Of a stretch of 18,170 nucleotides of DNA, positions 1 to 18,170 are shown one piece after another (within the stretch, counting starts at the first letter, position 1; each line of letters starts with the position of its first letter). The notes beneath the pieces were generated by a model. That model searched no databases, was not told the DNA's origin, and was given only the letters and a program-made list of their open reading frames with translations. The stretch is from a virus (Duplodnaviria; Heunggongvirae; Uroviricota; Caudoviricetes), in IMG/VR virus record IMGVR_UViG_2802429219_000014. One strand, 5' to 3'. A program made the translations under genes and the position numbers.

Positions 1-1236
1 CTACGATAACCGCGCATTCAACATGGCTACCTGTTCGTCGTTCATGTCATCAATCCACATACCGTAAATTTCATACACCATCTGCGCAGTTTCATGCCCC
101 ATCTGGCTGGCTATAAACGCCGGGTTCGCTCCTGCCGTCAACAGCCAGCAGGCAAAAGTATGCCGCGTATGGTACGGATTACGGCGGCGAATACCAGCAC
201 GTTTTACTGCTGCATTCCATCTCGCACCCAAACTGCTTACCGAGTAATAAGGTTTCTGTTTTCCGTTACACACTCTGGGCATGAAAACAAAATGCAGTTT
301 TTGCTTTTCGGTTCTGCCGTACTCCCGATGATAAAAAGTGATTTCGCTTTTGCGATGATGCCCGGTCAGTTTGTATTGCTCCTTCAGTGCTTCAAGAGCA
401 GGCTGCAGTAGTGTTACTGTCCGGATCCCGGCATTTGTTTTTGGGGGACCGAACATATCAAGTATCGTCAGGTTTCTTCTGACATTCACTATTCCCTTTT
501 CGAGATCCACATCCTCCCACGCCAGAGCTGCCAGTTCCCCGTGACGAAGTCCTGAGTAAACGGCAAATTTCCACAAGTTCTGGCTCTGTCCTTTTTCACT
601 TTCCATTAATGCATTGAATTCTGTTTTAGATAACGGATCAGGCTTTATTCTGTTTCGCTGTAATTTTTTTACTCCTTCAAATGGTTTGGTTGATATAAAT
701 CCCGACTGATACGCAAAACGCAACAGCGAACAGAGCAGGGCGATATAGTTATCAACTGTGCGCACGGTTCTTCCTTTTTTGTTGGATCTTGGATTATCCA
801 GGTAAAGCGTTTCTCCATGCAGCAGTTCATTCCGGTAGTTTAAGATATCGCTATAACGAATATGTGATATCGGGGTACTTTCACAAATTATTATTCTGAG
901 TGTTTTTAATTGTGATTTCGTTTTCTTCATTGTGTTTGTTGTTAACTCTGTCTCTTTAATTTTTGTCCAGATATCACAAAGCTCTCCGAACGTTTTTATG
1001 ACTCTCGTTGTCACCATTTTTGCCCCAGTGCTGGACTGGGGAAAACGTCTTAAATACTCAAATTCACCGGAGTTTATTTCATGAACTATCAGCGCTCTTA
1101 AATTTCCGGCCTTTTTAATATTACTGTTTGTAATCTCCCAGCCTTTTAATGTTTCCCGACATCGTTTTCCTCGAAACATGAACCAGATGCGAATGTATCT
1201 ACCTCTAATCTCGACACCTGTTGGTAATTTAGACAT
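1..1236 (-). CDS. intR: Tyrosine recombinase, Rac prophage integrase (411 aa); stop codon is at the first bases of the window
   Basis: Complete 411-aa ORF; size, sequence recollection and position at the head of the int-xis-ralR-recT-recE block match Rac IntR. No search run. Confidence 0.9.
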   Translation of the reverse strand: MSKLPTGVEIRGRYIRIWFMFRGKRCRETLKGWEITNSNIKKAGNLRALIVHEINSGEFEYLRRFPQSSTGAKMVTTRVIKTFGELCDIWTKIKETELTTNTMKKTKSQLKTLRIIICESTPISHIRYSDILNYRNELLHGETLYLDNPRSNKKGRTVRTVDNYIALLCSLLRFAYQSGFISTKPFEGVKKLQRNRIKPDPLSKTEFNALMESEKGQSQNLWKFAVYSGLRHGELAALAWEDVDLEKGIVNVRRNLTILDMFGPPKTNAGIRTVTLLQPALEALKEQYKLTGHHRKSEITFYHREYGRTEKQKLHFVFMPRVCNGKQKPYYSVSSLGARWNAAVKRAGIRRRNPYHTRHTFACWLLTAGANPAFIASQMGHETAQMVYEIYGMWIDDMNDEQVAMLNARLS

Positions 1237-1237
1237 A

Positions 1238-1453
1238 TCATGAGTCTTTGATAAACTGATTTATCTTTGGATAGTTGTACCAGATAATCCCTCGTTTGCT
1301 GTCTGGCTTACCTAAAGGAGATACTCGTTTGAAGTGGAAGCCCTCCACCCAACAGTTCTGGCGGTATGCTTCAATTTGTCTGGCCCCCAGACCAGTGCGA
1401 AGCATCAGGCCGTATTCAACCATCCACTCTTCATTAAAGATTACTTGTGCCAT
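1238..1453 (-). CDS. xisR: Excisionase-like protein (71 aa); an in-frame upstream ATG at 1477 would give 79 aa
   Basis: Small ORF directly upstream of int, stop 1 nt from the int start; sequence recalled as Rac YdaQ/XisR. Start chosen to give the 71-aa form. Confidence 0.75.
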
Positions 1454-1531
1454 CGCATCACCTCTGGCAGGCGCCAATGTTAGACTGAAATTGACGCCCG
1501 ATGTTGATTATTAATAATCAGCTATGAAGTT

Positions 1532-1741
1532 TTAATTTGAATACAATGCAATTCTCGAGGACTGAAGTTTCTCGCAATTAAAATTTATCAGTTTTACTTT
1601 CTGCTCTCTGGAAACGCCTGCTTCTTTTTTACCTGAGAGCATTTTTTTGCATTCTGATTTCGTTAGTTTAGATTTTGAATATCTTGTCCAGTTAGTAGGA
1701 GTGCCACATTCCTTTTCAATAGTGGCGGTAATTTTATACAT
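1532..1741 (-). CDS. ydaC: Rac prophage small protein YdaC-like (69 aa)
   Basis: ATG at 1741 preceded by a strong SD (GGAGGTG on the coding strand); overlaps the ralR 3' end by 8 nt; position matches K-12 Rac ydaC. Confidence 0.65.
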   Translation of the reverse strand: MYKITATIEKECGTPTNWTRYSKSKLTKSECKKMLSGKKEAGVSREQKVKLINFNCEKLQSSRIALYSN

Positions 1742-1928
1742 GAACACCTCCATTATTATTTCCAGTGGTTCGTTTATTCCATCTTTCGAGTGCTTCTTTT
1801 TCACTTCCACCATAACCGGTTCGGGATTCGCATCCGTTACACTTCGCTCGGTAATATCCTGAAATGGCTTTCACCGTTACTGATGGACAACCACAAAATG
1901 GACATGGTTTAACATTGTCATATCTCAT
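1734..1928 (-). CDS. ralR: Restriction alleviation / type I toxin RalR (Lar-like, 64 aa, Cys-rich)
   Basis: 64-aa product MRYDNVKPCPFCGC...NNNGGVHV with CxxC...CxxC motifs, recalled as RalR; located just upstream of recT as in Rac. Confidence 0.8.
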   Translation of the reverse strand: MRYDNVKPCPFCGCPSVTVKAISGYYRAKCNGCESRTGYGGSEKEALERWNKRTTGNNNGGVHV

Positions 1929-1984
1929 AATTTTTCTCATAAAAAATATTTCAAGTTGGCGGTGCATTACACCGCCAGGCTGAA

Positions 1985-2794
1985 TTATTCCTCTGAATTA
2001 TCGATTACACTGTATTCCCCGGTTAATACAGAGGAATCTGCAGGATCGATTGTCAGTGGTTCCTTTTCATCCATTGATACTGCACGCTGGATCTCAATTG
2101 ATACGGGCAGATATTTGAACAGGCGACGAATAGCCGTTTTCTTTGCCATTTCTTCCCAGTGAGTTACCCACGGCCCGTTATTACCAGCTTTACTCAGGCT
2201 GCGCACCAGCTCAATCTGTTTGCGCGTCATAACTTCAAACTGAGTACCTCCGTCTTTCAGTCTTGCGACAGCATAGACGTGGGTAACCGGGGCATCTTCG
2301 TTTTCTCCCGGGCGGTGTATTAACTTTTCATCAAGGCCAAATTCGAAGCTAAACTCGTCACCTTCACGGACAACACGGGCTGACAGGCTGGCGATTTGAC
2401 CAGAACGGCGAGCCAGATCAATCATGCCGCGATAGCCAATGATTAGCTGAACGTTCTTTTTACCGCTCTTTTCGTTTTTATTACCAAAAGGCAGTAAATA
2501 TGCATGACCGAGGGCGCTACCTGGCTCAAGTCCGAGCTGTGAACACTGTACGATCGCACTGACAAAACTCATAGTGTCACAGTTTCCTAACGCCGGAACT
2601 TTACGAATTTCTGTGGTGGCGATACGGATCATACGTTCAGCCGTCATATGGCGTGGAAGAGCTGCTGCCAGTTGCTCTTTCATTGATGGCTGGTTAATAA
2701 AACTAATCACGTCGCTATTTTTAACTGCTGCTGGTGCACGGTTTCCCTGAGTTTTTTGCAGATCGGCTTTTGCGATTGGTGGTTGCTTAGTCAT
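1985..2794 (-). CDS. recT: RecT single-strand annealing recombinase (269 aa)
   Basis: 269-aa ORF from the internal ATG (MTKQPPIAK...); size and sequence match RecT; start is 8 nt inside the recE 3' end. Confidence 0.9.
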
Positions 2795-5387
2795 TTGCAT
2801 ATTCCTTAGCCCAGCGGGGCAGTGATAATGTCTTAATAGCTGGCCATTCATCGGTATTCAGGCAGTCAGACAGGGTTCGCAGATTGCGGTGATATTCCTG
2901 TTGACCTGCCAGTTTTGCTTCTTCGCCCATCATGAAAATTTCAACCGGATAACGTCCGCATTCAATAGTTGTGCTGGCAACCAGAAAAACGAAAGTTGGC
3001 TGCACTCCAAACTGTGCTTCATAACCGTCACTGTAGAATGCATCCTGAACGTGATAGCGGTAGTCGTAATAAGCGGTTTTGAATCGTTGAATATCCGCCG
3101 TAGTTTTCACGTCCATGATCCAGTGAAATTCAGGGATAATTTTGTCCGGACGGCACCGACACAAAATTCCTGTTTCAGGATCTTCCCAGTAAATTGATGA
3201 TTCAGCGTGTCCGGCGCTTTCAACAAGCCATTGCCCCAGCGGCAAAGCCATAACGCTTTGATACATGAGTTCAATTTTCCGGCCTTCTTCCGCAGTGATA
3301 ACCGTTTTTCCTGTGCTTGCGCATTCCATCAGAAACGCTTTCTCTTCTTCTTTTCCGGCGTTTGTACGGCGGTTAAATTCAGGTGCTACGATAAAGCGGT
3401 TACTGAATTCTTCCGGTTCAAGTACCCGGCAGTGGAAAGCGGTTCCTAAATCGAGCGTTTTTGTCTTTGTGGTGTCCACGGGGGCATTTTTACGCCACAA
3501 ATATAGTGCCGGAGTATCAGCAATGTCATCGAGCTGAGACTTACTGACACCGGGACCCGCGTGGTAATTCTCATTCGAAATTCCGTAATAAATACCTGGC
3601 TCTATGTCTTCTACGATTACGGGATCTGCGACTTCGCCAGTTTCATCACTGCAATCGCGATGCGGATCGCTGCCAGCATTCTCATTGTGCGGATGTTCAG
3701 CGCCTTCCATTTCCTCCGGATCATTTTCCTTAGCTTCAACCTGACTCTCTTCATCGAATGTTTCCTGGTATGTTGCGTCGCCCATCACCGCACCACAGTC
3801 AGGGCAGTTATCCCCGCCAGTCTGGCCGCAGGCATTGCAGGCTATTTCCGGTTCCTGTTGCACTACTGGCTCAGGTTGATTCATATCCGGGCTGGTTTTT
3901 TCCGTTTCTGGCTGGTTCTGGTACACAGAGTCGCGAGTCTGGATCCCCTTTACCCATTTCGGATCGTTCGGGTCGCTAATTCCGTCAACAAATTCACCAC
4001 GTGATGCAGCAAGCAATTTATCGGCATCGACAGGATCTTTTGATGGAATGTTTTTCCGGGCTTCATGGAGTTCTGCCCGCAGTTCCTGATATTTCGCATC
4101 AACAGAATTTACCTGTGACTGAGCATCCAGCGGCTGCGTGTCCTGATGATGTTCAGTTGCGTCCGGTTCCATTGTTTCAGCCTCTCCCTGTTCAACTGCC
4201 GTTGTTCCAGATGGTTGCGGTTTTTCTTCATCATCCTGTTTTCCTTCTTCTGTTACTCGCTGCGGCATCGGGGCAGAGGAGCGACCGCAGGCAATATCCA
4301 CGATTTCCGGATCAGGGTTGGCATGATCGGTTTCAGTCAGTACTTTGTTCAGATATTCAGTGACGTGCGCGGGGATGACCTCGATCCCAATTGGTGCTTC
4401 TTTTACGGACGCAACCACGATGGCGCGGGAATAATCCAGCCCGCCAGGCATGGTGATGAATTTGTCGCGGAAAACAGAAAAGGGCGGTTTATTTTCAGCG
4501 ATAATTTCCTCAATGCGTTTAGCGTGTGCCGGATGAAGGTTATAGATGTCCAGATCCATTGAACGGGCCAGTACGCCAGTGGCTACGTCGCGCGCCAGTG
4601 ACGTCAGATCGTGTACGAAACCTTCGCCGCGATCGGTGAGGTTTCCGCCGCCAGCATTAGCACCGGAAGCCGTGCGAGTGATGTGTGAAACACGATTACC
4701 CTTCATCCACTCTTTTGTCAGCAGTCCTCGATCGGTGTAGTCAGCGTTCAGGTATGCTTCGAAAAAAGCAGTTATCAGTCCCAGGTTTGAATTACCAGGA
4801 TTAGGGAAAACTTTGTCAGTGTCACGAACCAGTTTGTGGAGTTCGCGAATTTCCAGCGGGTCGAGCAGGCTGGTTTTGTGGGAAACAGCCAGGGCAGTAA
4901 CAGCCGGTAGTTCTTCAGCCCGAGCAATGTGTAATGCCTGGAGTCCGTCGCGTGAAACGTGCGTTACCGGTTTTTCGCTGCCGTGTTGAGCAAGCCAACG
5001 AATGGGCAGTTCCTGGCCAGAAATTGGGAGTAGCATATTCTCCTCAATCTCAGTCATGTCTTCGCCGTTGACGTTGGTATTGCCTTGATAGTGAGCGTTG
5101 TCTGGTGCTGCTCCCGGTTTTAGTTCCCATGTCATGGAGTCTTTGCTGAGTTGATAGCGTTCACTCCAGGTAAAATCGATCTCACCTTCAGCGGGCAGGT
5201 CATTAACGACAGGAAAATTCGTGGCAACAGCTTTAAAATAGCTGCTCAGTTTTTTACCTGACTTAACGATCAGGTAGTCCAGAGTGGCACAGGTCGATTC
5301 AAAATCGTTGCTTGCCCACAGGACGACGTCAGGTTCACCGGATGATTTTTTCGCTTTCCGTAACAGGAAGAGTGGTTTTGTGCTCAT
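2787..5387 (-). CDS. recE: RecE exonuclease VIII (866 aa)
   Basis: 866-aa ORF with acidic/Pro-rich central linker region and C-terminal nuclease domain; size and order match Rac recE. Confidence 0.9.
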
Positions 5388-5475
5388 TGTTTTTTAACCT
5401 CAACTCAGATTAAAATTCGTTTTGTTTGCCGGATACACACTGTTCATAGCCTGCGCCATACGCAGGCTATTTCTT

Positions 5476-5751
5476 TCAGATTTCACCTTTTAATTTCATT
5501 GCAATTAGAGTTGCCAGAAATTCGGCTTTTTTTTCTGCGGGCAGATTCTTTCCGATATGCACCAGGCACATTTTTTTGACACCTTCATCAAGTGTTTTTA
5601 CGTTGCCTGATGGACCATCGATATCAACCACAGTGAATGGGGTTTCTTTATTTTCTGTTTTAATTACGTAGCCAATGCGCTTTCCTTCCAGATTCACCTC
5701 GTGAACAATGTCATCGGTAGTTACAACAGTGGCTTCATAATTGGTAATCAT
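5476..5751 (-). CDS. racC: Rac prophage protein RacC-like (91 aa)
   Basis: ATG at 5751 preceded by SD GGAGAAAAAC; MITNYEATVVTTDD... recalled as RacC; position after recE. Confidence 0.75.
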   Translation of the reverse strand: MITNYEATVVTTDDIVHEVNLEGKRIGYVIKTENKETPFTVVDIDGPSGNVKTLDEGVKKMCLVHIGKNLPAEKKAEFLATLIAMKLKGEI

Positions 5752-5825
5752 GTTTTTCTCCTTAATTAAGGTTGAGCGAATACCTGCCATTTCTGGCATA
5801 AATTCAGTTTCGAATAGTCAATTAA

Positions 5826-5996
5826 TTAAAGTTCATGTGCCATCTGGTCTTTTTCGGCACAAGCTTCACTGCAATATTTTCTCGGTTCGTCTTTTGATAA
5901 AATCCCGTGCATGAAGTGAAGCATTCTTTCAATAGCTTTGCTTTCTTCAACGTCTTTTTTGCAAAGGTGGTAAGCACATTTTATTTTCTTAGTCAT
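5826..5996 (-). CDS. ydaE: Small Cys-rich protein YdaE-like (56 aa); below the 60-aa cutoff of the ORF track
   Basis: Hand translation of the reverse strand gives [56 protein letters not shown]; its ATG overlaps the kilR stop (ATGA). Confidence 0.7.
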   Translation of the reverse strand: MTKKIKCAYHLCKKDVEESKAIERMLHFMHGILSKDEPRKYCSEACAEKDQMAHEL

Positions 5997-6217
5997 CACC
6001 ATGACTCCGCCTTTACAGGTAAACCATCACGACCGAGGAAGACTTTAATCATGCGGTCAGTAATGCATGTTTTTGTGGTCAGGTTACGAATATATAGTTT
6101 TCGCTTTTTAATATTGTTTGCCGAGGCAATATATGTCCGGCCTTCATGAAGAACATAATCGCCAGGAGTCACACACTGACGTGGTATTTCATCAGTTCCG
6201 AAGTGATGTGCAATCAT
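5996..6217 (-). CDS. kilR: KilR-like cell-division inhibitor (73 aa)
   Basis: 73-aa form from the ATG at 6217 ([14 protein letters not shown]...); recalled as Rac KilR; translationally coupled to ydaE. Confidence 0.8.
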
Positions 6218-6658
6218 AATTATCTCCATTTTTACAAATGAACTTTGTTGATGCGGTGCCTGGTGCCTCCAGGTGACTGCAACCAGTTAACAATTACAGT
6301 CGGCTTTCCCACCCAAACCAATAAGGACTAACATGACTTTTAACTGTGCCACGTGCGCTTAGCCGCATTCATCGCATCACAAAATTCACTTTAAAAAGGG
6401 CGGACATCAGCCGAACTTCAAGAAAAAAACTGATGCCGCCAGGACTACACACAGCAATGTCGTTATTTACAACCGGAGGCGCACTCCCACCATTTAAATT
6501 TAACAGACAAGACCGACTCTTTATGGATATCGGAAATGCGCCTTCGTGTTGTGCCCGGTTTTATTTCACCACCTCCGGGCTTCGGTGGTCTCGGCTATAC
6601 CCCTACAGCGAGAGCTTGTGTTAACATTTCAATACCCTTACAGTTGAGAGTTATTGAT

Positions 6659-7147
6659 ATGTTGGATGTATTTACTCCATTGTTGAAACTTTTTGCTAAC
6701 GAGCCACTCGAAAGACTTATGTATACGATTATCATTTTTGGTCTCACTCTCTGGCTGATACCGAAAGAGTTTACTGTCGCATTCAATGCTTATACTGAAA
6801 TACCTTGGCTCTTTCAGATTATCGTTTTTGCCTTTTCTTTCGTGGTCGCCATTTCCTTCTCAAGATTGCGAGCACATATTCAAAAGCATTATTCATTACT
6901 ACCAGAGCAACGAGTATTGCTTCGTTTATCTGAGAAAGAAATCGCTGTATTTAAAGATTTCCTTAAAACAGGAAATCTTATTATCACTTCTCCTTGCCGT
7001 AACCCGGTTATGAAAAAATTAGAACGGAAGGGCATCATTCAACATCAGAGTGATAGCGCAAACTGCTCTTATTATCTCGTCACCGAAAAATACTCCCATT
7101 TTATGAAGTTATTCTGGAACAGCAGGAGTAGACGTTTTAATCGTTAG
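6659..7147 (+). CDS. sieB: Superinfection exclusion protein SieB-like (162 aa, predicted membrane protein)
   Basis: Internal ATG at 6659 gives 162 aa (MLDVFTPLLKLF...) with two hydrophobic segments; the 41-codon upstream extension of the tracked ORF lacks support. Confidence 0.8.
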   Translation: MLDVFTPLLKLFANEPLERLMYTIIIFGLTLWLIPKEFTVAFNAYTEIPWLFQIIVFAFSFVVAISFSRLRAHIQKHYSLLPEQRVLLRLSEKEIAVFKDFLKTGNLIITSPCRNPVMKKLERKGIIQHQSDSANCSYYLVTEKYSHFMKLFWNSRSRRFNR

Positions 7148-7299
7148 CTTACTGTGTGCTTCTCCAACCATCGGCGCGCACCAGTTTCGGTTTTAAATGT
7201 TTTGCTTTTGGTATACGTCATGGCAGTGAACGTTCCATCCTGGTTGGGGAACACGCCGCACACCAGGGATTCGTTGTTGCCGAGGTCGATTTTTTGCAT
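7144..7299 (-). CDS. ydaF: Rac small protein YdaF-like (51 aa); below the ORF track cutoff
   Basis: Hand translation MQKIDLGNNESLVCGVFPNQDGTFTAMTYTKSKTFKTETGARRWLEKHTVS; convergent with sieB, stop codons overlapping. Confidence 0.6.
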   Translation of the reverse strand: MQKIDLGNNESLVCGVFPNQDGTFTAMTYTKSKTFKTETGARRWLEKHTVS

Positions 7300-7309
7300 T
7301 TTGCGAATC

Positions 7310-7444
7310 TCACATCTTGTTGCTACGTATAGCGACTTCTGCCTGCCAGAGATCCCAGTCGTTGCTGCGTAAAGCCTGCACAGCCTGGTTGTAAGTGATA
7401 CCGCAACAATCCATCAAATACTGAACTACTTCGTAATGCACCAT
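7310..7444 (-). CDS. ydaG: Rac small protein YdaG-like (44 aa)
   Basis: ATG at 7444 gives MVHYEVVQYLMDCCGITYNQAVQALRSNDWDLWQAEVAIRSNKM; first gene of the leftward early operon by position. Confidence 0.65.
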   Translation of the reverse strand: MVHYEVVQYLMDCCGITYNQAVQALRSNDWDLWQAEVAIRSNKM

Positions 7445-7618
7445 CTTATCTCTCCCCTTAACGCCGGGTGGCGGAACTGAAACCTGCTGCACTGCAAAAT
7501 CTGAACCCTGCCGTCATGTTCATACGCCTCGGGCTGGCTACTTAACCCCTGACCACTGCCTGGTAACTCGAAGTATTGCCCTGCGTTCTGTGGGACGGGG
7601 TGGGTTGGTAGGTATATG

Positions 7619-7660
7619 ATGTACTTTGTGTTCATTGATGTAAAGTACTTTAAGTACATT
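7619..7660. promoter_or_regulatory. Candidate left operator/promoter region (OL-like): three GTAC-core motifs (ATGTACT 7619-7625, AAGTACTT 7643-7650, TAAGTACATT 7651-7660)
   Basis: Repeats read directly in the sequence; the same ATGTACT core recurs between racR and ydaS; lies downstream of racR and upstream of leftward ydaG. Confidence 0.4.
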
Positions 7661-7734
7661 TTGTGTGTAAAAAAATGAGATGGGATAAAGTGAAGCACAA
7701 ACCCGGAGGGGGGCGCTACCGGATTTATGCTGGT

Positions 7735-8154
7735 TTAAGAGGCTTTTTGTTTTTTCTTTCGTGCTAACTCTTCGTAAATTGCATTGTACTTCTGTTTTTT
7801 CTCCTCAAGAGTTTTTAAAAGTTCATCTGTCTCACTGTCAGGGAGCTCGTCCAGAAGGTCAATGATGATTTTTTGTCTTGGATTTAACTCCTGATAGAAA
7901 CGTACCTGTCCACTTTCTTCTGTATCCTCTCCCAAAAGATAGGTTGGTGTTGTTCCAATGAGTGTTGCTAATTCCCTTAATTTCTCTCGGCGAGGAATTG
8001 TTTCGCCATTAAACCATTTGCTAACCGCTTTTGGTGTTAATTTCATTCGACGGGCAATTTCTGCCTGCCTTCCATGTTGTTCATAACCAGCGTTTTCACA
8101 GGCTAGCGCAAGCCTACTGGCGAACTCTTTACGCGCTTTATCTTCATGAACCAT
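7735..8154 (-). CDS. racR: Prophage repressor RacR (139 aa as called here, HTH near N-terminus)
   Basis: HTH-like segment and divergent arrangement with the cro-like ydaS; position as in Rac. Confidence 0.85.
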   Translation of the reverse strand: MVHEDKARKEFASRLALACENAGYEQHGRQAEIARRMKLTPKAVSKWFNGETIPRREKLRELATLIGTTPTYLLGEDTEESGQVRFYQELNPRQKIIIDLLDELPDSETDELLKTLEEKKQKYNAIYEELARKKKQKAS

Positions 8155-8233
8155 AAGTTCAATGATATTCGCTCTTGAATGTACTGTCAGTTCTGTTATA
8201 GCATGTACTCAAAGTTCACATTGTGAGGGTGAT
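8155..8233. promoter_or_regulatory. Divergent racR/ydaS control region with two direct ATGTACT repeats (8179-8185, 8203-8209) and a rightward TTGAAT-16-TATAGC promoter-like element (8175-8202)
   Basis: Motifs read in the sequence; 79-bp interval between divergent start codons; operator role inferred by analogy with lambdoid OR. Confidence 0.45.
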
Positions 8234-9783: not shown

Positions 9784-10530
9784 ATGAAAAATATTGCGGC
9801 AGGAGGCATTCTTGAACGTATCCGCAGACTGGCCCCGCCACATGTAACCGCCCCATTCAAAACGGTAGCGGAGTGGCGCGAGTGGCAACTTTCCGAAGGC
9901 CAGAAACGTTGTGAGGAGATCAACCGTCAGAATCGTCAGTTGCGGGTGGAAAAAATTCTGAATCGCTCTGGCATCCAGCCATTGCACCGCAAATGCTCGT
10001 TTGCGAATTACCAGGTGCAGAACGACGGTCAGCGATACGCGTTGAACCAGGCGAAATCTATCGCTGATGAACTGATGACCGGGTGTACAAATTTTGCGTT
10101 CAGCGGAAAACCTGGTACCGGAAAAAACCATCTGGCGGCGGCTATCGGGAATCGCCTGCTGAAAGATGGCCAGACAGTGATTGTGGTTACCGTGGCTGAT
10201 GTCATGAGTGCTCTACACGCCAGCTATGACGACGGGCAATCAGGCGAAAAATTTTTGCGGGAACTGTGCCAAGTGGATCTGCTGGTTCTTGATGAAATTG
10301 GCATTCAGCGCGAGACAAAAAACGAGCAGGTGGTGCTGCACCAGATTGTTGATCGCCGGACAGCGTCGATGCGCAGCGTGGGGATGCTGACAAACCTGAA
10401 CTATGAGGCCATGAAAACATTGCTCGGCGAGCGGATTATGGATCGCATGACCATGAACGGCGGGCGATGGGTGAATTTTAACTGGGAGAGCTGGCGTCCG
10501 AATGTCGTCCAGCCAGGAATTGCGAAGTGA
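9784..10530 (+). CDS. ydaV: DnaC/IstB-like AAA+ helicase loader YdaV (248 aa)
   Basis: Walker [16 protein letters not shown] and Walker [10 protein letters not shown] motifs visible in the translation. Confidence 0.85.
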
Positions 10531-10552
10531 TTTTTACCGGGAGGAAATTTTA

Positions 10553-11314
10553 ATGGAAACCGTTTTTGATGCACTGAAAGCAATGGGAAAAGCCACGTCG
10601 GTAGAACTGGCTGCGCGACTTGATATCAGTCGTGAAGAAGTGCTGAACGAGCTGTGGGAACTTAAAAAGGCTGGCTTCGTTGATAAAAGCGTATACACCT
10701 GGCGTGTGGCTGATAACAACGTTCAGCAGGAACAGCCAGAGCAGGCAGAACTGCCGGAAGAAACCACCACGGCAACAGTAGCGAAAATCTCAGAGTGCGA
10801 TTTAACCGCGACGATTGAACAACGTGGCCCACAAACGGCGGATGAACTGGCTACGTTTTTCGGCACCACATCACGCAAAGTGGCTTCAACGCTGGCAATG
10901 GCAATCAGCAAAGGCCGTCTGATTCGCGTTAATCAGAACGGTAAATTTCGTTACTGCATGCCGGGCGATGATTTACCAGCAGAGCCGAAAGCTGCATCGG
11001 TAACGGAAACTGATGGTAAAGCCTTTCCTCAACCAGCAGGTGTTGCGTTACCGGGACAGGAAGCTGCAATACAGGAAGATATTAAAACAGAAACTGTGGC
11101 GGACATTGTGCAGTCGTTGCCATCGTTTACCGAAACGCGAGCGGATGACCTCGTTCTGCCATCGCTGCATATGGCAAACCGCGAACTGCGTCGGGCGAAA
11201 AATCATGTCCAGAAGTGGGAGCGTGTCTGCGCCGCGCTGCGGGAGCTGAACAAGCACCGGGATATTGTTCGACTGATTACTGATTCTTCTCGCTGTGTTG
11301 CATCGGAAAAGTGA
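10553..11314 (+). CDS. ydaW: YdaW-like protein (253 aa), apparently intact, with two winged-helix-like segments
   Basis: Strong SD GGGAGG before the ATG at 10553; follows ydaV as in Rac, where the K-12 copy is recalled as a pseudogene. Confidence 0.65.
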
Positions 11315-11329
11315 TTGCCGGAGGCGCTT

Positions 11330-11746
11330 ATGGCAAAAGTATTTACACAAGAAGAGCGGGAAAAAATCAAGGGACAGGTTGTTGAGCTAGTACGCCGGAG
11401 TGGGCGCGAGACGTTACGGCAACTGGAAGCCAAGACAGGTGCGACAAGATATCTGATGAGCGTTCTCGCCAGAGAGCTGGTTGCCAGTGGCGATGTATAC
11501 AACTCTGGCTACGGGTTATTCCCGTCTGAACAGGCTCGTAAGGACTGGCAAAATGCCCGCAAAAAACTATCTAGGGCAAAGGTGAAGAAACCATCTGTGG
11601 TTGATCCGGACCTTATCTGGTCATTACCTGACGGAGAAATACGTCGTTATGACAGGCACCAAAACATAATTTGCTGTGAGTGCCGGAAGAGCGAAGTTAT
11701 GCAGCGCATACTGGCATTTTATCAGAGAAATTTTCGTTATTTATAG
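11330..11746 (+). CDS. Hypothetical protein (138 aa) with an N-terminal HTH/winged-helix-like segment
   Basis: SD CCGGAGG before the ATG at 11330; protein-like composition; no family recognised. Confidence 0.55.
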   Translation: MAKVFTQEEREKIKGQVVELVRRSGRETLRQLEAKTGATRYLMSVLARELVASGDVYNSGYGLFPSEQARKDWQNARKKLSRAKVKKPSVVDPDLIWSLPDGEIRRYDRHQNIICCECRKSEVMQRILAFYQRNFRYL

Positions 11747-11909
11747 ACGTTACTCGATTAAAGAGCATTAGTTCAGATGTGAATTGACATTTTCACGGCA
11801 CAGGATTGAGCTAGCGTGGTTGTCTGCTTTGTGTCAAAAGCAGATATTACCAGATTTAGACATCTATTCCCGATAGCCCTGCTCTGATGCTACACTCTGT
11901 GCTATTTTC

Positions 11910-12596
11910 ATGACCCCAATAAAAATATTTATGACTATTGCTGATTTCAAACGGCCTAAATTGGAGCTCCCAAACGGGGCAAACAAACTACTACTGCACT
12001 CTTGCTGTGCTCCATGTTCCGGTGAAGTGATGGAGGCGCTTCAGGCCTCGGGAATCGACTATACCATCTTTTTCTACAACCCGAACATTCATCCTCAGAA
12101 AGAGTATTTAATTCGTAAGGATGAGAATATTCGCTTTGCTGAACAACACGGCGTGCCATTTATTGATGCTGATTACGACACAGACAACTGGTTTGAACGT
12201 GCCAAAGGAATGGAATGGGAGCCCGAGAGGGGGATCCGTTGTACCATGTGTTTTGACATGCGTTTTGAGCGGACAGCGCTGTACGCTGCTGAAAATGGTT
12301 TCAGTGTGATCAGCAGTTCACTGGGCATTTCACGCTGGAAAAATATGCAGCAGGTTAACGACTGTGGGCGGCGAGCCGTCGCGCATTATCCGGGCATGGT
12401 GTACTGGGATTATAACTGGCGCAAGCAGGGCGGCTCGTCCCGCATGATTGAAATCAGCAAGCGCGAAAAATTCTATCAGCAGGAATATTGTGGCTGTGTG
12501 TATTCTCTGCGCGATACCAATCTACACCGCAAATCTCAGGGACGCCCTCTTATCAAAATTGGTCAACTCCACTACGGTAAAGAAGAGAAGGAGTGA
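11910..12596 (+). CDS. DUF208 / QueH-like (epoxyqueuosine reductase family) protein, 228 aa
   Basis: [11 protein letters not shown] motif near the N-terminus and CGCVYS near the C-terminus, recalled as DUF208/QueH signatures; no SD seen at either candidate ATG (11910 or 11931). Confidence 0.55.
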
Positions 12597-12628
12597 TTTT
12601 ATGGAGCACCTTTCTTATTGATTTCATA

Positions 12629-12657
12629 TTGGCGAGGTAGCGGGAGTTAAGTAAAAT
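12629..12657 (+). promoter_or_regulatory. Candidate promoter for hok mRNA (TTGGCG-17-TAAAAT)
   Basis: Hexamers read in the sequence about 175 nt upstream of the hok ATG, followed by a structured leader. Confidence 0.35.
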
Positions 12658-12833
12658 TGCTGCGGGTGCTTGAGGCTATCTGCCTCAGGCATGAACACCA
12701 AAAGGCAGATAGAGAAAAGCCCCAGTTAACATTACGCGTCCTGCAAGACGCTTAACATTAATCTGAGGCTCAATCTATGCTGAACACATGTAGGTTAGCC
12801 TCTTACGTGCCGAAAGGCAAGGAGAAGCAGGCT

Positions 12834-12989
12834 ATGAAGCAGCAAAAGGCGATGTTAATCGCCCTGATCGTCATCTGTTTAACCGTCATAGTGACGGCAC
12901 TGGTAACGAGGAAAGACCTCTGCGAGGTACGAATCCGAACCGGGCAGACGGAAGTCGCTGTCTTCACAGCTTACGAACCTGAGGAGTAA
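12834..12989 (+). CDS. hokD: Hok/Gef-family type I toxin (51 aa membrane peptide), HokD/RelF-like
   Basis: MKQQKAMLIALIVICLTVIVTALVTRKDLCEVRIRTGQTEVAVFTAYEPEE; single TM helix plus the conserved Hok C-terminal core; SD AAGGAG 9 nt before the ATG. Confidence 0.85.
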   Translation: MKQQKAMLIALIVICLTVIVTALVTRKDLCEVRIRTGQTEVAVFTAYEPEE

Positions 12990-12999
12990 GAGACCGGGC

Positions 13000-13021
13000 G
13001 AGGGAGAAATCCCTCGCCACC
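13000..13021 (+). other. Perfect 9-bp stem with GAAA loop (GGCGAGGGAGAAATCCCTCGCC) at the hok mRNA 3' end
   Basis: Read directly; sits immediately after the hok stop, where hok mRNAs carry their 3' fold-back stem-loop. Confidence 0.5.
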
Positions 13022-13455
13022 TCTGATGTATTATGCATCCTCAACGCACCCACACTTAACCAGTTTTGGCGAGTTTATTTTATCTGTAAATATTTTTATA
13101 AAAATAATGCCCACGCACAGCATAAAACAAAAAGTATTACAGATAAAAAAGGAGCGTAATGTGCAGATTTGTTGTTTTCCATATTTACTCACCTTAATAT
13201 GATTGATCTTGATAGGATTGTTATTTCAGTGGTTTTCAAATGAGATATTATGGTGATCTGGTAGATTTGCATAACATTAAAATTTAATTTGTTTAACCGC
13301 TTTTAATAATAAGCGTTGTTTTTATCCCGGCAATCTGTTGTTTGGTTTTTATTTCATTAAGGTGGGGACTTTACACTGGAGCCAGTTTATTTATACTTCA
13401 TACGTCAGCCTGAACAACTGGCATCTGCTGCACTGCGCCATCGAGAGATTGAGAA

Positions 13456-14055
13456 ATGGCGCATATACAACTGGTCAAACAAACTTCTTCTGGTTTACTT
13501 CTCCCGGCGACGCCGGAGAGTTGCGATTTTCTGCATCAAATCAAAATAGGTGAGTGGATACACGCAGACTTTAAGCGTGTGCGTAACTACGCATTCCACA
13601 AGCGTTTTTTCAAACTCCTGCAACTGGGATTCGATTACTGGACTCCGGTCGGTGGGGCGATCACACCTCGCGAACGAGAAATGGTGTTCGGCTTCGTTGA
13701 TTACCTGTGTGAATCAGTAGGCAGGGAACATACGCCAGCTCTGAGTGATGCCGCGGAACAATATCTGAATACCGTTGCGACACGCAGAACCCGGGATATG
13801 GCATTGCTCAAATCATTTGACGCTTTCCGCGAGTGGGTAACCATTCAGGCCGGATTTTACACCGAGCATTTTTATCCTGATGGTAGTCGTGGGCGTCGGG
13901 CGAAATCCATCGCGTTTGCGAATATGGACGAAACCGAGTTTCAGCAGGTTTATAAATCTGTACTGAATGTGCTGTGGAACTGGATTCTGTTCCGTAAATT
14001 TTCCTCTCCGGAACAAGTCGAAAATGTGGCCGCGCAGCTACTGGAGTTTGCGTAA
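13456..14055 (+). CDS. Conserved phage nin-region protein (199 aa), possibly DUF1367 family
   Basis: 199-aa ORF; stop overlaps the start of the next gene (TAATG); family name is a low-certainty recollection. Confidence 0.6.
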   Translation: MAHIQLVKQTSSGLLLPATPESCDFLHQIKIGEWIHADFKRVRNYAFHKRFFKLLQLGFDYWTPVGGAITPREREMVFGFVDYLCESVGREHTPALSDAAEQYLNTVATRRTRDMALLKSFDAFREWVTIQAGFYTEHFYPDGSRGRRAKSIAFANMDETEFQQVYKSVLNVLWNWILFRKFSSPEQVENVAAQLLEFA

Positions 14056-14345
14056 TGGTGGATTTACGTAAAGCGGCGCGGGGCCAGATGTGCCAGGTCA
14101 GAATCCCTGGCTACTGCAATCACAATCCCGAAACTTCTGTGCTGGCGCATTACAGGTTGGCAGGGACGTGCGGAACAGCGACAAAACCACACGATATGCA
14201 GGCAGCGATTGCCTGTAACTCATGCCACGATTTAATCGACGGGCGGGTAAAAACCAGCGATTACACCAAAGAAGAATTACGCCTGATGCATGCAGAAGGT
14301 GTTTTTCGCACGCAAGAAATCTGGAGAAAGGAAGGTTATTTATGA
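14055..14345 (+). CDS. YbcO-like Cys-rich protein (96 aa, DUF1364-like putative Zn-binding nuclease)
   Basis: 96 aa with several Cys/His; same size and position (just before Q) as DLP12 YbcO. Confidence 0.65.
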   Translation: MVDLRKAARGQMCQVRIPGYCNHNPETSVLAHYRLAGTCGTATKPHDMQAAIACNSCHDLIDGRVKTSDYTKEELRLMHAEGVFRTQEIWRKEGYL

Positions 14346-14878
14346 TTTACCCAACAAATACAGGCAAAAGCGGGGAACACCTTCGTCTCACCACGCTGGA
14401 AAGTGTCTGGATTCAGGGAAAACTGCGCATGTGGGGGCGCTGGTCGTATATTGGCGGCGGTAAGACGGGGAATATGTTTAACCAGTTGCTGGCGTCAAAA
14501 AAATTGACGAAAACAGCCATCAATGAAGCCCTGCGCAGAATGAAAAAAGCGGGAATAGAGAAAGCTGAGCTGGAAGCGTTTTTGCGAGAGATGATCAACG
14601 GCAAGCAAAAGAGCTGGCTGGTGCATTGTACTGATGCAGAGGCACTAAAAATTGATAGTGTTATAGGTGAAGTTCTGGCGGATCATCCAGGACTACTAAA
14701 TGTCCTGAGTCAGCGTTATGTGGGGCGAGGGATGAGTAAGAGAAGGATGGCCGAGTTATTAAACGAACAGTACCCAGAGTGGGCGTTGATTACATGCCGA
14801 CGTCGTGTTGATCAGTGGTTGCGTGTTGCTGAGTTCATTTTGTATTCACCTATGAGAGAAGCGTTCGATTATGCTTAA
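14342..14878 (+). CDS. Putative late-gene antiterminator Q (178 aa, Q21/QuuD-like family)
   Basis: ATG at 14342 overlaps the preceding stop (ATGA); WGRWS motif near the N-terminus; last gene before the tRNA/lysis region. Confidence 0.55.
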   Translation: MIYPTNTGKSGEHLRLTTLESVWIQGKLRMWGRWSYIGGGKTGNMFNQLLASKKLTKTAINEALRRMKKAGIEKAELEAFLREMINGKQKSWLVHCTDAEALKIDSVIGEVLADHPGLLNVLSQRYVGRGMSKRRMAELLNEQYPEWALITCRRRVDQWLRVAEFILYSPMREAFDYA

Positions 14879-14885
14879 AAAATCA

Positions 14886-14914
14886 TTGCAAAATGAGCCA
14901 CAAACTGCTTCAAT
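14886..14914 (+). promoter_or_regulatory. Candidate late promoter pR'-like (TTGCAA-17-TTCAAT)
   Basis: Weak sigma70-like hexamers just after the Q stop; placement by analogy with lambdoid late promoters. Confidence 0.3.
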
Positions 14915-14973
14915 TTCGGTACGCTTCGCATAGCTGTATCGCGAGGCAAATTAAGCGCATGAACTTTAATACA

Positions 14974-15000
14974 ACCCGCCATTGAGCGGGTTTTGTTGTT
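14974..15000 (+). terminator. Intrinsic terminator, tR'-like (6-bp GC stem ACCCGC/GCGGGT, 6-nt loop, then TTTTGTTGTTT)
   Basis: Hairpin plus U-rich tract read in the sequence, about 60-100 nt downstream of the candidate pR'. Confidence 0.5.
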
Positions 15001-15133
15001 TCTGTGGCGTGATATCAGAAACGACATTTAATAATCGCCTTCAAAATAAATTTGTTTATACATTGTCATGTATATTTTAAGTGAAAGTGAATTATTCACA
15101 TAAAATAAAAACATATAAATAAATTTACATAAC

Positions 15134-15162
15134 TTGACGCAAAGTGTTGTTGCGATTGGAAT
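15134..15162 (+). promoter_or_regulatory. Candidate promoter upstream of the tRNA genes (TTGACG-17-TGGAAT)
   Basis: Hexamers read in the sequence about 80 nt upstream of tRNA-Thr; the -10 is weak. Confidence 0.3.
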
Positions 15163-15240
15163 ATTAAATCGTATCATCGAAAACGGTTCTGAGGGGGAAC
15201 TCTTCTTTGCTCGGTGATATCGCTCCCCTGAAGAACCAAT

Positions 15241-15316
<76 letters not shown>

Positions 15317-15319
15317 TAT

Positions 15320-15394
<75 letters not shown>

Positions 15395-15755
15395 GCATTT
15401 GAAACAAGCCTTATTGTATTGCGGCACTGGCGTATTTTTTTATTACGTGGGAGCAGGTTGTTTTGAAAAAGCATTCTGTTCTCTGGCTATGATTTGAGGC
15501 CGGGTGTAGCCTCAGTGCTGATTTTTTACGGCAGCAGAATGGTGCATTATCGGTGGAGATTTTGTATTTCCTGGCAGGGTCGGTGATGCATCATTCTGGT
15601 GTTGTAAAAGCACCGCAGAGGCGTTCCTCAGGGCGAGGGTGGTTTAAAGAGTCGGTTTAGCGGGAAACCACAGTATCCATACGGCACGGAATACTTCGGG
15701 AGGCACCCGACGCCTCGGTTTTATAACAATTAAATAATTCATCCCTTAATTGACC

Positions 15756-15782
15756 AACCGCCGTATCAGGCGGTTTTTTTTA
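15756..15782 (+). terminator. Strong intrinsic terminator (AACCGCC-GTATCA-GGCGGTT followed by eight or more T)
   Basis: GC-rich hairpin immediately followed by a long T tract, read in the sequence. Confidence 0.65.
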
Positions 15783-15790
15783 TTCTTAAT

Positions 15791-15827
15791 TCGAAAAAAG
15801 AAAACACGGACACTGATAATGTCCGTG
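15791..15827 (-). terminator. Reverse-strand intrinsic terminator (8-bp stem CACGGACA/TGTCCGTG, followed on the minus strand by TTTTCTTTTTTCG)
   Basis: Perfect 8-bp hairpin with a U-rich tract on the minus strand; back to back with the plus-strand terminator. Confidence 0.5.
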
Positions 15828-16166
15828 CGGCAATGCCATGTAAGTCAGTGATGAATATGGCGCAAAAAAAGCGCGGCTGTCGGATTAACGCCGCGGGACA
15901 AAGTCCGTGAAGAAGAATAAGTATCGGTCTCCTTCCGGAGACGAGTTGATATTACTAAGCTTTAAAAATGGTTTAAATCCTCAGATTAACCTTAATTTCA
16001 GATAAGGTTTATTTCATTTTCTCCGCGTCACATCCGACGCACATCACATCAGATAACACCACACAAAAGGCATCTGCGGGTGTCTTTGACGGGGTGTTTT
16101 TTACGGGCCGCTGGTGGCCATTTTTTGTTTCCATTACACAGCGCCCGCATCTGCGAGGTGGGGGTT

Positions 16167-16382
16167 ATGAAATCCATGGATAAGTTAACAACGGGTGTCG
16201 CCTATGGCACCTCCGCAGGCAGTGCTGGCTACTGGTTTTTACAGTTGCTCGATAGAGTAACTCCGTCACAGTGGGCTGCAATCGGTGTGCTGGGTAGTCT
16301 GGTATTTGGCTTGCTGACGTACCTGACAAACCTTTATTTCAAGATTAAAGAAGACAAGCGTAAGGTTGCACGGGGAGAGTAA
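16167..16382 (+). CDS. Class II pinholin with dual start (MKSM...; 71/68 aa), phage 21 S-like
   Basis: SD GAGGTGGGGG before the ATG; dual-start Met-Lys-Ser-Met motif; two TM segments; aligns from memory with S21. Confidence 0.85.
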
Positions 16383-16386
16383 TTCA

Positions 16387-16731
16387 ATGACACAAAACTA
16401 TGAACTGATTGTGAAAGGGATCCGCAATTTTGAGAATAAAGTTGCGGTAACTGTAGCATTAAGGGACAAAAAACGCTTTGACAGTGAAATTTTTGACCTG
16501 GACATCTCGCTGGACCGTGTTGAAGGTGCCGCGCTGGAGTTTTATGAGGCAGCAGCCAGAAGGAGCATCAGACAGGTCTTCCTGGAAGTTGCAGCCGGGT
16601 TATGTGAAGGGGATGAGCAGTCGCCGGAAAAGCGCCCCGTAATTTTAGAGGCGCAGAATGTGTGGATAACCTACAAAGGAAAGCTACCAGGAAGAATTAC
16701 TGATTCTCTGAAGACTCCACCGAAATGGTAA
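16387..16731 (+). CDS. Hypothetical protein (114 aa) between holin and endolysin, possibly YdfR/DUF1327-like
   Basis: SD GGGGAGAG before the ATG, 4 nt after the holin stop; K-12 Qin carries ydfR in the equivalent position. Confidence 0.55.
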   Translation: MTQNYELIVKGIRNFENKVAVTVALRDKKRFDSEIFDLDISLDRVEGAALEFYEAAARRSIRQVFLEVAAGLCEGDEQSPEKRPVILEAQNVWITYKGKLPGRITDSLKTPPKW

Positions 16732-16969
16732 TTTTACCAGCATATTTTTCTTCCAGTAATGCCGCCAGCCACTTGAAAGAATTTTGTTGTTCCTGGGACC
16801 ATTTGGGGTTGCGTGATTCAAGCAGGAGCGATGCCAGTGTTGGTTGCATTTGTTCTCTGGGAATTGATAAGGCCAAATATGAAAATGCAACAGTGAGGGC
16901 ATTTACATCATCCCGAAGCTTTGAAATGCAGTCGAGCAACTCCTGTAGAGAAATGGTGTTATTGTCCAT
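16697..16969 (-). CDS. Candidate reverse-strand hypothetical protein (90 aa) inside the lysis cassette
   Basis: Good SD (AAGAGGA, 6-nt spacer) before the ATG at 16969; helical-looking composition; 3' end overlaps the preceding plus-strand gene by 35 nt. Confidence 0.35.
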   Translation of the reverse strand: MDNNTISLQELLDCISKLRDDVNALTVAFSYLALSIPREQMQPTLASLLLESRNPKWSQEQQNSFKWLAALLEEKYAGKITISVESSENQ

Positions 16970-17074
16970 AAATAATCCTCTTGATTGTCTTTACCTTTTC
17001 CCCGCCTGATTCAACAGGCCAGGACAGATAAACATGTCCAGGGTTCAGAAACCGATAAATCCTGATAAATATCC

Positions 17075-17608
17075 ATGAACGCAAGAATCAAATACGGCCT
17101 GTCAGCGGCCGTTCTGGCGCTGATTGGAGCAGGCGCATCTGCTCCTGAGATACTTGACCAGTTTCTGGATGAAAAAGAGGGTAACCACACTACGGCATAC
17201 CGCGATGGTTCCGGCATATGGACCATCTGTCGAGGGGCCACGATGGTGGATGGTAAACCTGTTATTCCTGGCATGAAACTGACGAAGGAAAAATGCGATC
17301 AGGTTAATGCCATTGAACGGGATAAGGCACTGGCATGGGTGGAGCGCAATATTAAAGTGCCACTGACCGAACCACAGAAAGCGGGTATAGCGTCATTTTG
17401 CCCCTATAACATTGGCCCCGGTAAGTGTTTCCCGTCGACGTTTTATAAGCGGCTGAATGCAGGTGATCGTAAAGGTGCCTGCGAGGCGATTCGCTGGTGG
17501 ATTAAGGACAGGGGGCGCGATTGCCGCCTTCGTTCAAATAACTGTTACGGTCAGGTTATTCGTCGTGATCAGGAGAGCGCATTAGCCTGTTGGGGGATAG
17601 ATCAGTGA
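17075..17608 (+). CDS. SAR endolysin (177 aa, T4-lysozyme fold, GH24-like), phage 21 R-like
   Basis: N-terminal Gly/Ala-rich weakly hydrophobic signal-anchor-release segment ([18 protein letters not shown]) followed by an E...D...T catalytic region. Confidence 0.9.
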
Positions 17609-18090
17609 GCAAAGTCACTGCGATTATTTCCGTTTTGATTATCTGTATCATCGTTTGCCTGTCATGGGCTGTTAATCATTACCGTGATAATGCCATTACC
17701 TACAAAGCACAACGCGATAATGTGACGGAAAAACTCAACCAGGCGACCGCAATCATTACTGACATGCAGATACGCCAGCGTGATGTTGCTGCACTCGATG
17801 CAAAATACCTGAAGGAGTTAGCTGATGCGAAAGCTGAAAATGATGCTCTGCGTGATGATGTTGCCGCTGGTCGTCGTCGGTTGCACATCAAAGCAGTCTG
17901 TCCGTCCGTGCGTGAAGCCACCATCGCCTCCAGCGTGGATAATGCAGTCTCCCCCAGACTGGCAGACACCGCTGAACGGGATTATTTCACCCTCCGGGAA
18001 CGACTGGTAATGATGCAGGCCCAACTTGAAGGTGCTCAGCAATTGAGCTGGCCCCCTGAAATACCAGACAGTAGATGTATCTTAAAATAA
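17605..18090 (+). CDS. Rz i-spanin (161 aa, GTG start overlapping the endolysin stop)
   Basis: N-terminal TM segment plus coiled-coil region; aligns from memory with lambda Rz apart from the last ~15 residues. Confidence 0.8.
17825..18010 (+). CDS. Rz1 o-spanin lipoprotein (61 aa), embedded in the +1 frame of Rz
   Basis: Lipobox LVVVGC after a signal peptide; Pro-rich mature part; wholly contained within Rz. Confidence 0.85.
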
Positions 18091-18107
18091 GAGATAGGCT
18101 TGGATAT

Positions 18108-18170
18108 ATGTCTAACACTAGTTCTAATTTTGAGATGGCTGGCGTTTTGTTAGGAAAAGAGGTGCGTAAA
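18108..18170 (+). CDS. 5' end of an ORF running off the window (MSNTSSNFEMAGVLLGKEVRK...)
   Basis: ATG at 18108 with an open frame to the window end; only 21 codons visible, no clear SD. Confidence 0.25.
   Translation, partial: MSNTSSNFEMAGVLLGKEVRK

Follow-up and report, generated by a model that had tools for sequence, protein, structure and literature searches.

A probable Rac-family prophage arm from Escherichia coli with its late region retained, and the deleted K-12 reference that makes it look like a hybrid

The stretch of DNA analysed here, referred to as the window, comprises 18,170 nucleotides (nt) of the viral record IMGVR_UViG_2802429219_000014 (Caudoviricetes), read on one strand. 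It starts at the stop codon of the integrase gene intR and ends inside an insertion sequence (IS). From left to right, the modules run from int/xis over the RecET recombination functions with the kil and sieB accessory genes to a divergent immunity region with a repressor and a Cro-like protein, and further to the YdaU/YdaV replication genes. These are followed by YdaW, DUF977, a cargo slot, a NinB-like protein, YbcO and a Q-like antiterminator, and the Q-like gene by a short terminated leader, two tRNAs, a pinholin, YdfR, a lysozyme of the signal-anchor-release (SAR) type and the Rz/Rz1 spanins. The window very probably represents the left arm (integrase through lysis cassette) of a lambdoid E. 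coli prophage of the Rac family in which the late region has been kept. The element is of an ordinary, already known kind, and no new kind of element is present in the window. For the analysis, a listing of open reading frames (ORFs), a tRNA search with ARAGORN and searches against Pfam, PHROG and Rfam were used. Segments were mapped by their identity in 250-bp bins to ten references, together with perfect-match stretches and three-way alignments, and population counts refer to a sample of 5426 complete E. coli genomes.

In an earlier note on this DNA, a Rac early region was proposed to be joined to a Qin/phage 21-type late region at about 11300-13450. This was not borne out, and the region is not a recombination joint. 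The Rac prophages of strains 042 and 2009C-3133 are 100% identical to the window across 11000-13500 in 250-bp bins, without any discontinuity. The Rac prophage of K-12 matches the window at 1-7610 (99.4% DNA identity), 8479-11002 (96.6%) and 17625-18043 (90.2%), and has no match between 11003 and 17624. Since the K-12 match resumes at 17625, inside Rz, K-12 Rac corresponds to the arrangement of the window minus the following stretch:

11004-17624, plus strand: 6.6 kb deleted in K-12 Rac, where a ydaW'::rzpR' fusion is found; not a feature of the window itself

Positions 13201/13202 of the K-12 locus join window positions 11002/11003 to 17625. The K-12 junction reads ...GCATCGGTA on its left side and TCTCCG... 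on its right side, so that codon ~150 of ydaW is joined to the start of Rz. The apparent change of character after ydaW arises because the reference for the comparison, K-12 Rac, has lost 11004-17624. The late region is the Rac family's own and has been retained, and the look of a Rac-plus-Qin hybrid stems from the deleted K-12 reference. An intact K-12 deletion junction was counted in 338 genomes, the full matches among those listed being laboratory K-12 derivatives, and ydaW is uninterrupted across the deletion point in 2221 genomes. A literature search on the K-12 Rac deletion yielded nothing specific. The practical lesson is one of reference choice: K-12 Rac is a deletion derivative, and fuller Rac copies therefore look hybrid when compared to K-12 alone.

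Rac prophages that lie between ttcA and trkG and run through the supposed joint were identified in 042, 2009C-3133, 1428, ATCC 8739 and 14EC029. Sp10/CP-933R of the literature belongs with these undeleted Rac-family prophages at ttcA, and background on Rac-like prophages is given in PMC4632033. Over window positions 4096-16383, the 042 prophage has an overall identity of 97.8%, and the part at 9805-15785 contains five single mismatches to it. In 14EC029, the K-12 racR/ydaS immunity allele and the full late region are combined in one prophage, which shows that a K-12-type Rac with this late region exists. In 6 of the 6 relatives examined ttcA is located 51 bp beyond intR, and trkG follows Rz in all relatives examined; the window itself ends in the IS at 18044-18170. 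The same order, int...Q...Rz-trkG-terminase, is present in phage-genome records (vB_EcoS-666R9 and relatives), and beyond the terminase vB_EcoS-666R9 carries a P22-like coat and a lambda-like tail. At least 80% of the window is found in one place in 149 of the 5426 genomes, and nearly all of its sequence has a counterpart of 96-100% identity in sequenced Rac-family or Qin-like prophages or in a known IS, 17607-17660 being the one short exception. As a separate observation, 32% of the window, with recE, recT and the Q module among the matched parts, is found at 92% identity in the record PP818812 (Actinobacillus phage vB_Apl-pPE4), whose host label is unexpected for a Rac-like sequence.

The early region consists of the following features:

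1-1236, minus strand: intR, integrase; protein 100% identical to K-12 IntR
1238-1453, minus strand: xisR, excisionase; protein 100% identical to K-12 XisR
1532-1741, minus strand: rcbA; 97% protein identity to K-12
1557-1735, plus strand: RalA antitoxin small RNA (Rfam RF02694, 218.5 bits)
1734-1928, minus strand: ralR, toxin; 100% protein identity to K-12
1985-2794, minus strand: recT; protein 100% identical to K-12 RecT
2787-5387, minus strand: recE; protein 100% identical to K-12 RecE
5476-5799, minus strand: racC ORF, early-left accessory
5826-6002, minus strand: ydaE ORF, early-left accessory
5996-6229, minus strand: kilR ORF, early-left accessory
6659-7147, plus strand: sieB (Pfam SieB match)
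7144-7299, minus strand: ydaF, early-left accessory
7310-7444, minus strand: ydaG, early-left accessory

The genes from intR to kilR thus lie on the minus strand, followed by sieB on the plus strand and by ydaF and ydaG on the minus strand again. The Rac-like gene order claimed for this part, intR-xisR-rcbA/ralR-recT-recE-racC-ydaE-kilR-sieB-ydaF-ydaG and later ydaT-ydaU-ydaV-ydaW, was found to match K-12 Rac exactly, and the early-left Rac module (recET, ralR/RalA, racC, ydaE, kilR and sieB in the Rac order) is present in full. Segment 1-7500 is closest, and essentially identical, to K-12, 1428 and 666R9, and 5476-7444 is ~100% identical to K-12 Rac on the DNA level in 250-bp bins. The 042 Rac prophage contains another, longer RecT/RecE pair (1089 and 3024 bp; 042 locus 4515-8641) with a partial match to window 1978-4095. 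This difference in the recET allele implies that the recombination module is also exchangeable within the Rac family.

The immunity and replication block follows:

7735-8154, minus strand: repressor of 139 amino acids with a helix-turn-helix domain (Pfam HTH_3)
8234-8488, plus strand: Cro-like helix-turn-helix protein of 84 amino acids (Pfam), divergent from the repressor
8485-8907, plus strand: ydaT (Pfam YdaT_toxin)
8920-9777, plus strand: ydaU, O-like initiator (Pfam DUF1376)
9784-10530, plus strand: ydaV, DnaC-like loader (Pfam IstB-like)
10553-11314, plus strand: full-length ydaW/DUF1627 (Pfam DUF1627)

The immunity allele at 7611-8478 is 100% identical in 042, 2009C-3133, 1428 and phage 666R9 and has no match to K-12 racR/ydaS, the allele which 14EC029 retains. 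The segment represents a swap of the immunity allele. To its right, 8479-11002 contains the Rac replication block ydaT-ydaU-ydaV-ydaW at the identity to K-12 given above. At ~9800, the K-12/1428-like allele switches to a 042-type allele, and the sequence from ~9800 to 16245 is near-identical to 042.

The Q module and the region up to the tRNAs, which the hybrid reading had assigned to Qin or phage 21, contain:

13456-14055, plus strand: DUF1367/NinB-like protein (Pfam, PHROG)
14055-14345, plus strand: YbcO nuclease-like protein (Pfam, PHROG)
14342-14878, plus strand: Q-like antiterminator DUF1133 (Pfam DUF1133, marginal PF06530; PHROG)
14887-14914, plus strand: putative late promoter TTGCAA-17 nt-TTCAAT, weak (8 of 12 consensus positions)
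14973-14992, plus strand: predicted hairpin terminator with T run, 95 nt after the Q-like stop (terminator scan)
15241-15316, plus strand: tRNA-Thr(TGT) (ARAGORN, Rfam)
15320-15394, plus strand: tRNA-Gly(TCC) (ARAGORN, Rfam)

The DUF1367-YbcO-DUF1133 region is 100% identical to 042 Rac, and in the phage collection it was identified only in Rac-like records. The Q-like protein scored 28.1 bits against PF06530, which is marginal at a cut-off of 26, and gave E=1.6e-77 with the 'Q-like' PHROG 753. To Q21, it showed 24% identity with E=4e-08 in a pairwise test, a distant but detectable relationship. By tblastn, no match to it was identified in Qin (YdfT) or DLP12 (QuuD). The Q-like gene is therefore present as noted earlier, but the resemblance of its module to a Qin/phage 21-type module did not hold, with none in Qin and 24% identity to Q21. 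For DUF1367, no counterpart was found in Qin, DLP12 or phage 21; YbcO, with 62% identity in DLP12, is the sole exception to the module's lack of matches in Qin and DLP12.

A sigma-70 scan picked up no late promoter after the Q-like gene, the candidate at 14887-14914 being below the scan threshold. Its spacer holds AATGAGCC, which is close to the AATGAGCA half-site bound by Q21 in phage 21. The spacer differs between Rac relatives whose Q-like alleles differ too (81% protein identity with 1428). Relatives conserve the terminator at 14973-14992; in Rac 442/2, its stem shows compensatory changes. By analogy to the phage 21 layout, the DUF1133 protein would most likely load at the candidate promoter and enable RNA polymerase to pass the terminators and transcribe the tRNAs and lysis genes.

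Both tRNAs mentioned in the earlier note were confirmed as Thr-TGT and Gly-TCC, and the same pair is annotated in 042, 2009C-3133, 1428, ATCC 8739 and 14EC029. Between the tRNAs and the holin, no convincing ORF and no Rfam family were identified at 15395-16166 (~770 nt). Terminator-like hairpins are located in this interval at 15494, 15700, 15756 and, on the minus strand, 15828. The bin 15751-16000 varies between relatives, and ATCC 8739 has an annotated hypothetical gene there.

The lysis cassette is the part of the late region in which sequence of a Qin type was in fact identified:

16167-16382, plus strand: phage 21-type class II holin (pinholin type), chimeric (PF04971, 119 bits)
16256-17608, plus strand: Qin-type patch of 1.35 kb with the 3' part of the holin gene, ydfR, orf90 and RrrQ-type lysozyme
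16387-16731, plus strand: ydfR; 81% identity to K-12 Qin YdfR over the aligned 65% of its length
16697-16969, minus strand: orf90, 90 amino acids; PHROG 2411 (unknown function), no Pfam match
17075-17608, plus strand: RrrQ-type lysozyme, 177 amino acids (PF00959), 92% identical to RrrQ
17605-18090, plus strand: Rz i-spanin (PF03245); 3' end altered by the IS from 18044
17825-18010, plus strand: Rz1 o-spanin, embedded (PF06085)

The holin is 85% identical to S21, 97% to EssD and 92% to EssQ, and has a dual start at Met1/Met4 as in S21, with the N-terminus MKSM. Its DNA equals 042 Rac (EssD-like) to about 16245 and a Qin-like prophage from about 16256, which places the left crossover at about 16246-16255 inside the holin gene and makes the holin chimeric. 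The patch at 16256-17608 is 98-100% identical per 250-bp bin to essQ-ydfR-orf-rrrQ of a Qin-like prophage in O55:H7 CB9615, an element with the order ydfU-ydfT-cspF/B-essQ-ydfR-orf-rrrQ-rzpQ. The right crossover lies at the lysozyme stop, which overlaps the Rz start. From there, 17607-17660 is neither 042 nor CB9615 exactly, with about 9 mismatches to 042 as the closest relative, and 17660-18043 is ~100% identical to 042 Rz. The Rz protein shares 82-84% identity with its counterparts in phage 21 and DLP12 and with the K-12 rzpR remnant. The antisense orf90 within the cassette overlaps the 3' end of ydfR and is conserved in Qin-like and some Rac prophages. Residues 7-24 of the lysozyme are rich in Gly, Ala and Ser, forming a SAR-like N-terminal segment, and its triad E35-X8-D44-X5-T50 aligns with the SAR endolysin R21. 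Judged by sequence, the cassette fits the predicted pinholin/SAR-endolysin lysis set.

At the position of the patch, 042 and 2009C-3133 have an rrrD/R21-type endolysin instead, 1428, ATCC 8739 and 14EC029 have ydfR-orf-lysozyme at 88-95% identity, and in 666R9 the holin and endolysin are of a third type. These differing lysis sets between relatives indicate that the cassette can be exchanged as a module, with conserved holin and Rz sequences on either side. In the window, an rrrD-type endolysin may have been replaced by the ydfR-orf90-rrrQ patch from a Qin-type prophage. Homologous recombination at conserved flanking genes, with related prophages as partners, is the presumed origin of the exchanges. 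The prophage is a mosaic, as the earlier note had claimed, with breakpoints other than those proposed, namely the immunity allele, the switch at ~9800 and the lysis patch. This mosaicism is finer than the one proposed and is routine among lambdoid phages. Module exchange in such phages is cleanly illustrated here by a crossover inside the holin gene that could be narrowed down to about 10 bp.

At the right end, homology to Rac extends to 18043, which is 26 bp short of the Rz stop codon as found in 042, and then gives way to the following element:

18044-18170, plus strand: left end of an IS3-family (ISEc48-like) element, 99-100% identical to ISEc48-annotated elements

Its inverted repeat begins TGAGCTGG..., and the ATG of the transposase orfA is at 18110. 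The insertion replaces the last 8 residues of Rz. Among the matches listed in complete genomes, none crosses the IS/Rz junction.

The remaining features of the supposed junction belong to the following segment:

11330-11746, plus strand: DUF977/LygF/Ren-like protein (PF06163, 103.8 bits; PHROG 142)
11747-13455, plus strand: variable cargo slot with QueH, sok/mok/hok and an AT-rich spacer
11910-12596, plus strand: QueH, epoxyqueuosine reductase family (PF02677/DUF208, 220.6 bits, profile positions 1-174 of 175)
12664-12839, plus strand: sok/hok-locus RNA (Rfam)
12777-12989, plus strand: mok
12834-12989, plus strand: hok (PF01848); protein 100% identical to HokD
13077-13455: AT-rich non-coding spacer (GC fraction 0.356 at 13001-13500)

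The presence of hok, named in the earlier note, was confirmed by PF01848, the identity to HokD and the Rfam match to sok. The earlier note had also expected new cargo most likely at 11300-13450; its location was right, the cargo lying in a variable slot from DUF977 to hok, but the reason given, a hybrid joint, was not. The cargo sits there because this is a variable cargo site of the family. The slot contains QueH in the window, 042 and 2009C-3133, a hypothetical gene, KilA-N and DUF1971 in 1428 and 666R9, a Dcm-type methyltransferase and an ATP-dependent nuclease in ATCC 8739, and a SIR2-family protein with IS421 in 14EC029. Several of the alternative slot genes look like defence genes. Within the AT-rich spacer region, the ORF 13026-13202 (58 amino acids) was treated as non-coding, because it has no Pfam or PHROG match. 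Apart from matches at chance level, nothing but sok and the two tRNAs came out of an Rfam search over 12600-16200 with permissive settings, and the spacer at 13077-13455 contained no known RNA family.

QueH has been described as a non-orthologous substitute for QueG (PMC5372724). The window protein is a full-length member of its family: it matches the solved Thermotoga QueH (PDB 7lc5) with E=5e-22 over residues 27-203, and the cysteine motifs CCAP, RC..C and YCGCV are aligned with those of 7lc5. The QueH segment is present in 1031 of the 5426 genomes, about a fifth. QueG depends on vitamin B12, and QueH does not. Tentatively, and with some doubt, the QueH cargo could be a working lysogenic-conversion gene, and the slot more broadly a site for the exchange of host-benefit and defence cargo. 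In that case, lysogens short of vitamin B12, for instance in the gut, would be able to complete the queuosine modification of their tRNAs. A literature search revealed no description of prophage-borne QueH in E. coli.

Two other explanations of the mosaic were considered. The first, that the switches between K-12-like, 042-like and Qin-like sequence are short-read mis-joins across repeats of co-resident lambdoid prophages, could account for breakpoints in genes that are conserved and repeated (at 16246-16255 in the holin and at the boundary of lysozyme and Rz), for a window whose last 127 bp belong to an IS, a frequent kind of end in draft contigs, and for the fact that the full combination is reproduced by no complete genome. 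However, it requires two independent mis-joins 1.35 kb apart, and the segment 17607-17660, matching neither putative parent exactly, is more in keeping with a natural exchange of older date than with a fresh mis-join. Moreover, an EssD-like holin, ydfR, the antisense orf, an RrrQ-type lysozyme, a phage 21-type Rz and trkG are found in 1428, ATCC 8739 and 14EC029. Because the same architecture thus occurs in complete genomes at the Rac site, an assembly chimera is considered highly improbable.

The second, the hybrid prophage with its joint at about 11300-13450, can hardly be given any credence. In its favour, Hok is identical to Qin HokD, the holin is close to EssQ (92%) and S21 (85%) and the lysozyme to RrrQ (92%), Rz/Rz1 and the Q - tRNA - S - R - Rz layout resemble those of phage 21, and K-12 Rac has no match to 11003-17624. 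Against it, two Rac prophages run without a difference through the proposed joint, neither Qin nor phage 21 matches the Q module and tRNA region on the DNA level, the Q-like protein is distant from Q21 and has no match to YdfT/QuuD, the features that define Qin are absent, and the K-12 gap is a deletion with both ends identifiable.

The reading preferred here, a Rac-family prophage arm with its own late region, has several points weighing against it. Neither ttcA nor trkG lies within the window and attL is also outside, so that the chromosomal site and the right-hand continuation are taken from the relatives. No single record matches the entire window at at least 99% identity, and this exact combination of alleles is unverified elsewhere; the best records cover 93% of the window at 95.5% identity and 89% of it at 98.5% identity. 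The single known prophage, collinear over the window, against which the earlier note had set the hybrid was largely found in the ttcA-site prophages, though not as a match to the whole window at that identity. The promoter assignment, at 8/12 positions, is weak and is based on position and conservation only. Finally, each exchange may have run in either direction, and either the rrrD-type or the rrrQ-type set could be ancestral in Rac.

Compared to known systems, K-12 Rac (b1345-b1375, at ttcA) has the same genes in the same order from intR to ydaG and again from ydaT through the first 60% of ydaW, together with an Rz/Rz1 remnant. It differs in its racR/ydaS immunity allele and lacks the end of ydaW, DUF977, QueH, hok/sok, the NinB-like gene, YbcO, the Q-like gene, the tRNAs, the holin, ydfR, the lysozyme and the start of Rz. 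The undeleted Rac prophages and the 666R9 records are collinear with the window from int to Rz and share its tRNA pair and Q module. They have differing alleles in recET (042), the cargo slot and the lysis cassette, and none carries an IS in Rz.

With Qin of K-12 and the Qin-like prophage of CB9615, the window shares hokD, an essQ-type holin, ydfR and the rrrQ lysozyme, and the essQ-ydfR-rrrQ lysis genes are of the Qin type. In the late region, DNA similarity to K-12 Qin is restricted to three patches, at 12820-13076 with hok (95%), 16163-16594 (88%) and 17065-17608 (91%); K-12 Qin has no DNA match to 13077-16162 or to 16595-17064. The claimed resemblance of the late region to Qin/phage 21 thus stands for hok and the lysis genes, but not for the Q module, the tRNA region and most of the late DNA. 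The early region of K-12 Qin is largely unrelated, with short patches at 6237-6403 (79% over 170 bp) and at 7163-7290 in ydaF (87.5% over 128 bp). The ydfU gene (DUF968), the YdfT-type Q, the csp genes and the DUF2514 spanin RzpQ of Qin are not in the window; no csp genes were found there. For the DUF1367, YbcO and Q-like proteins of the window, no tblastn match was identified in the ydfU-ydfT locus of Qin, the reverse search with YdfU and YdfT not having been run. Rz has no match in Qin, and the spanin is of the phage 21/DLP12/Rac type (PF03245), not DUF2514.

All features named in the earlier note, hok/sok, the Q-like gene, the two tRNAs and the phage 21-type lysis set, were present at about the places given for them, and the proposed parallel to phage 21 was upheld for the layout. 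On the DNA level, only the holin (75%) and Rz (87%) resemble phage 21. R21 and the window lysozyme are 34% identical by tblastn and 39% by alignment and are not closely related. The tRNAs of phage 21 are Asn and Thr, compared to Thr and Gly in the window, and the two tRNA-Thr are 66% identical (50/76 positions). Relative to phage 21, the cassette of the window additionally contains ydfR and the antisense orf, and ~770 nt of non-coding DNA separate the tRNAs from the holin. The Rz and Rz1 proteins of phage 21 are 82% and 93% identical to those of the window, and phage 21 (OL657228) carries Q21 - pR' (with a Q-binding element) - tR' - tRNAs - S21 - R21 - Rz/Rz1 in the same order. The series of Q-like gene, terminator, tRNAs, holin, endolysin and Rz/Rz1 in the window parallels this layout.

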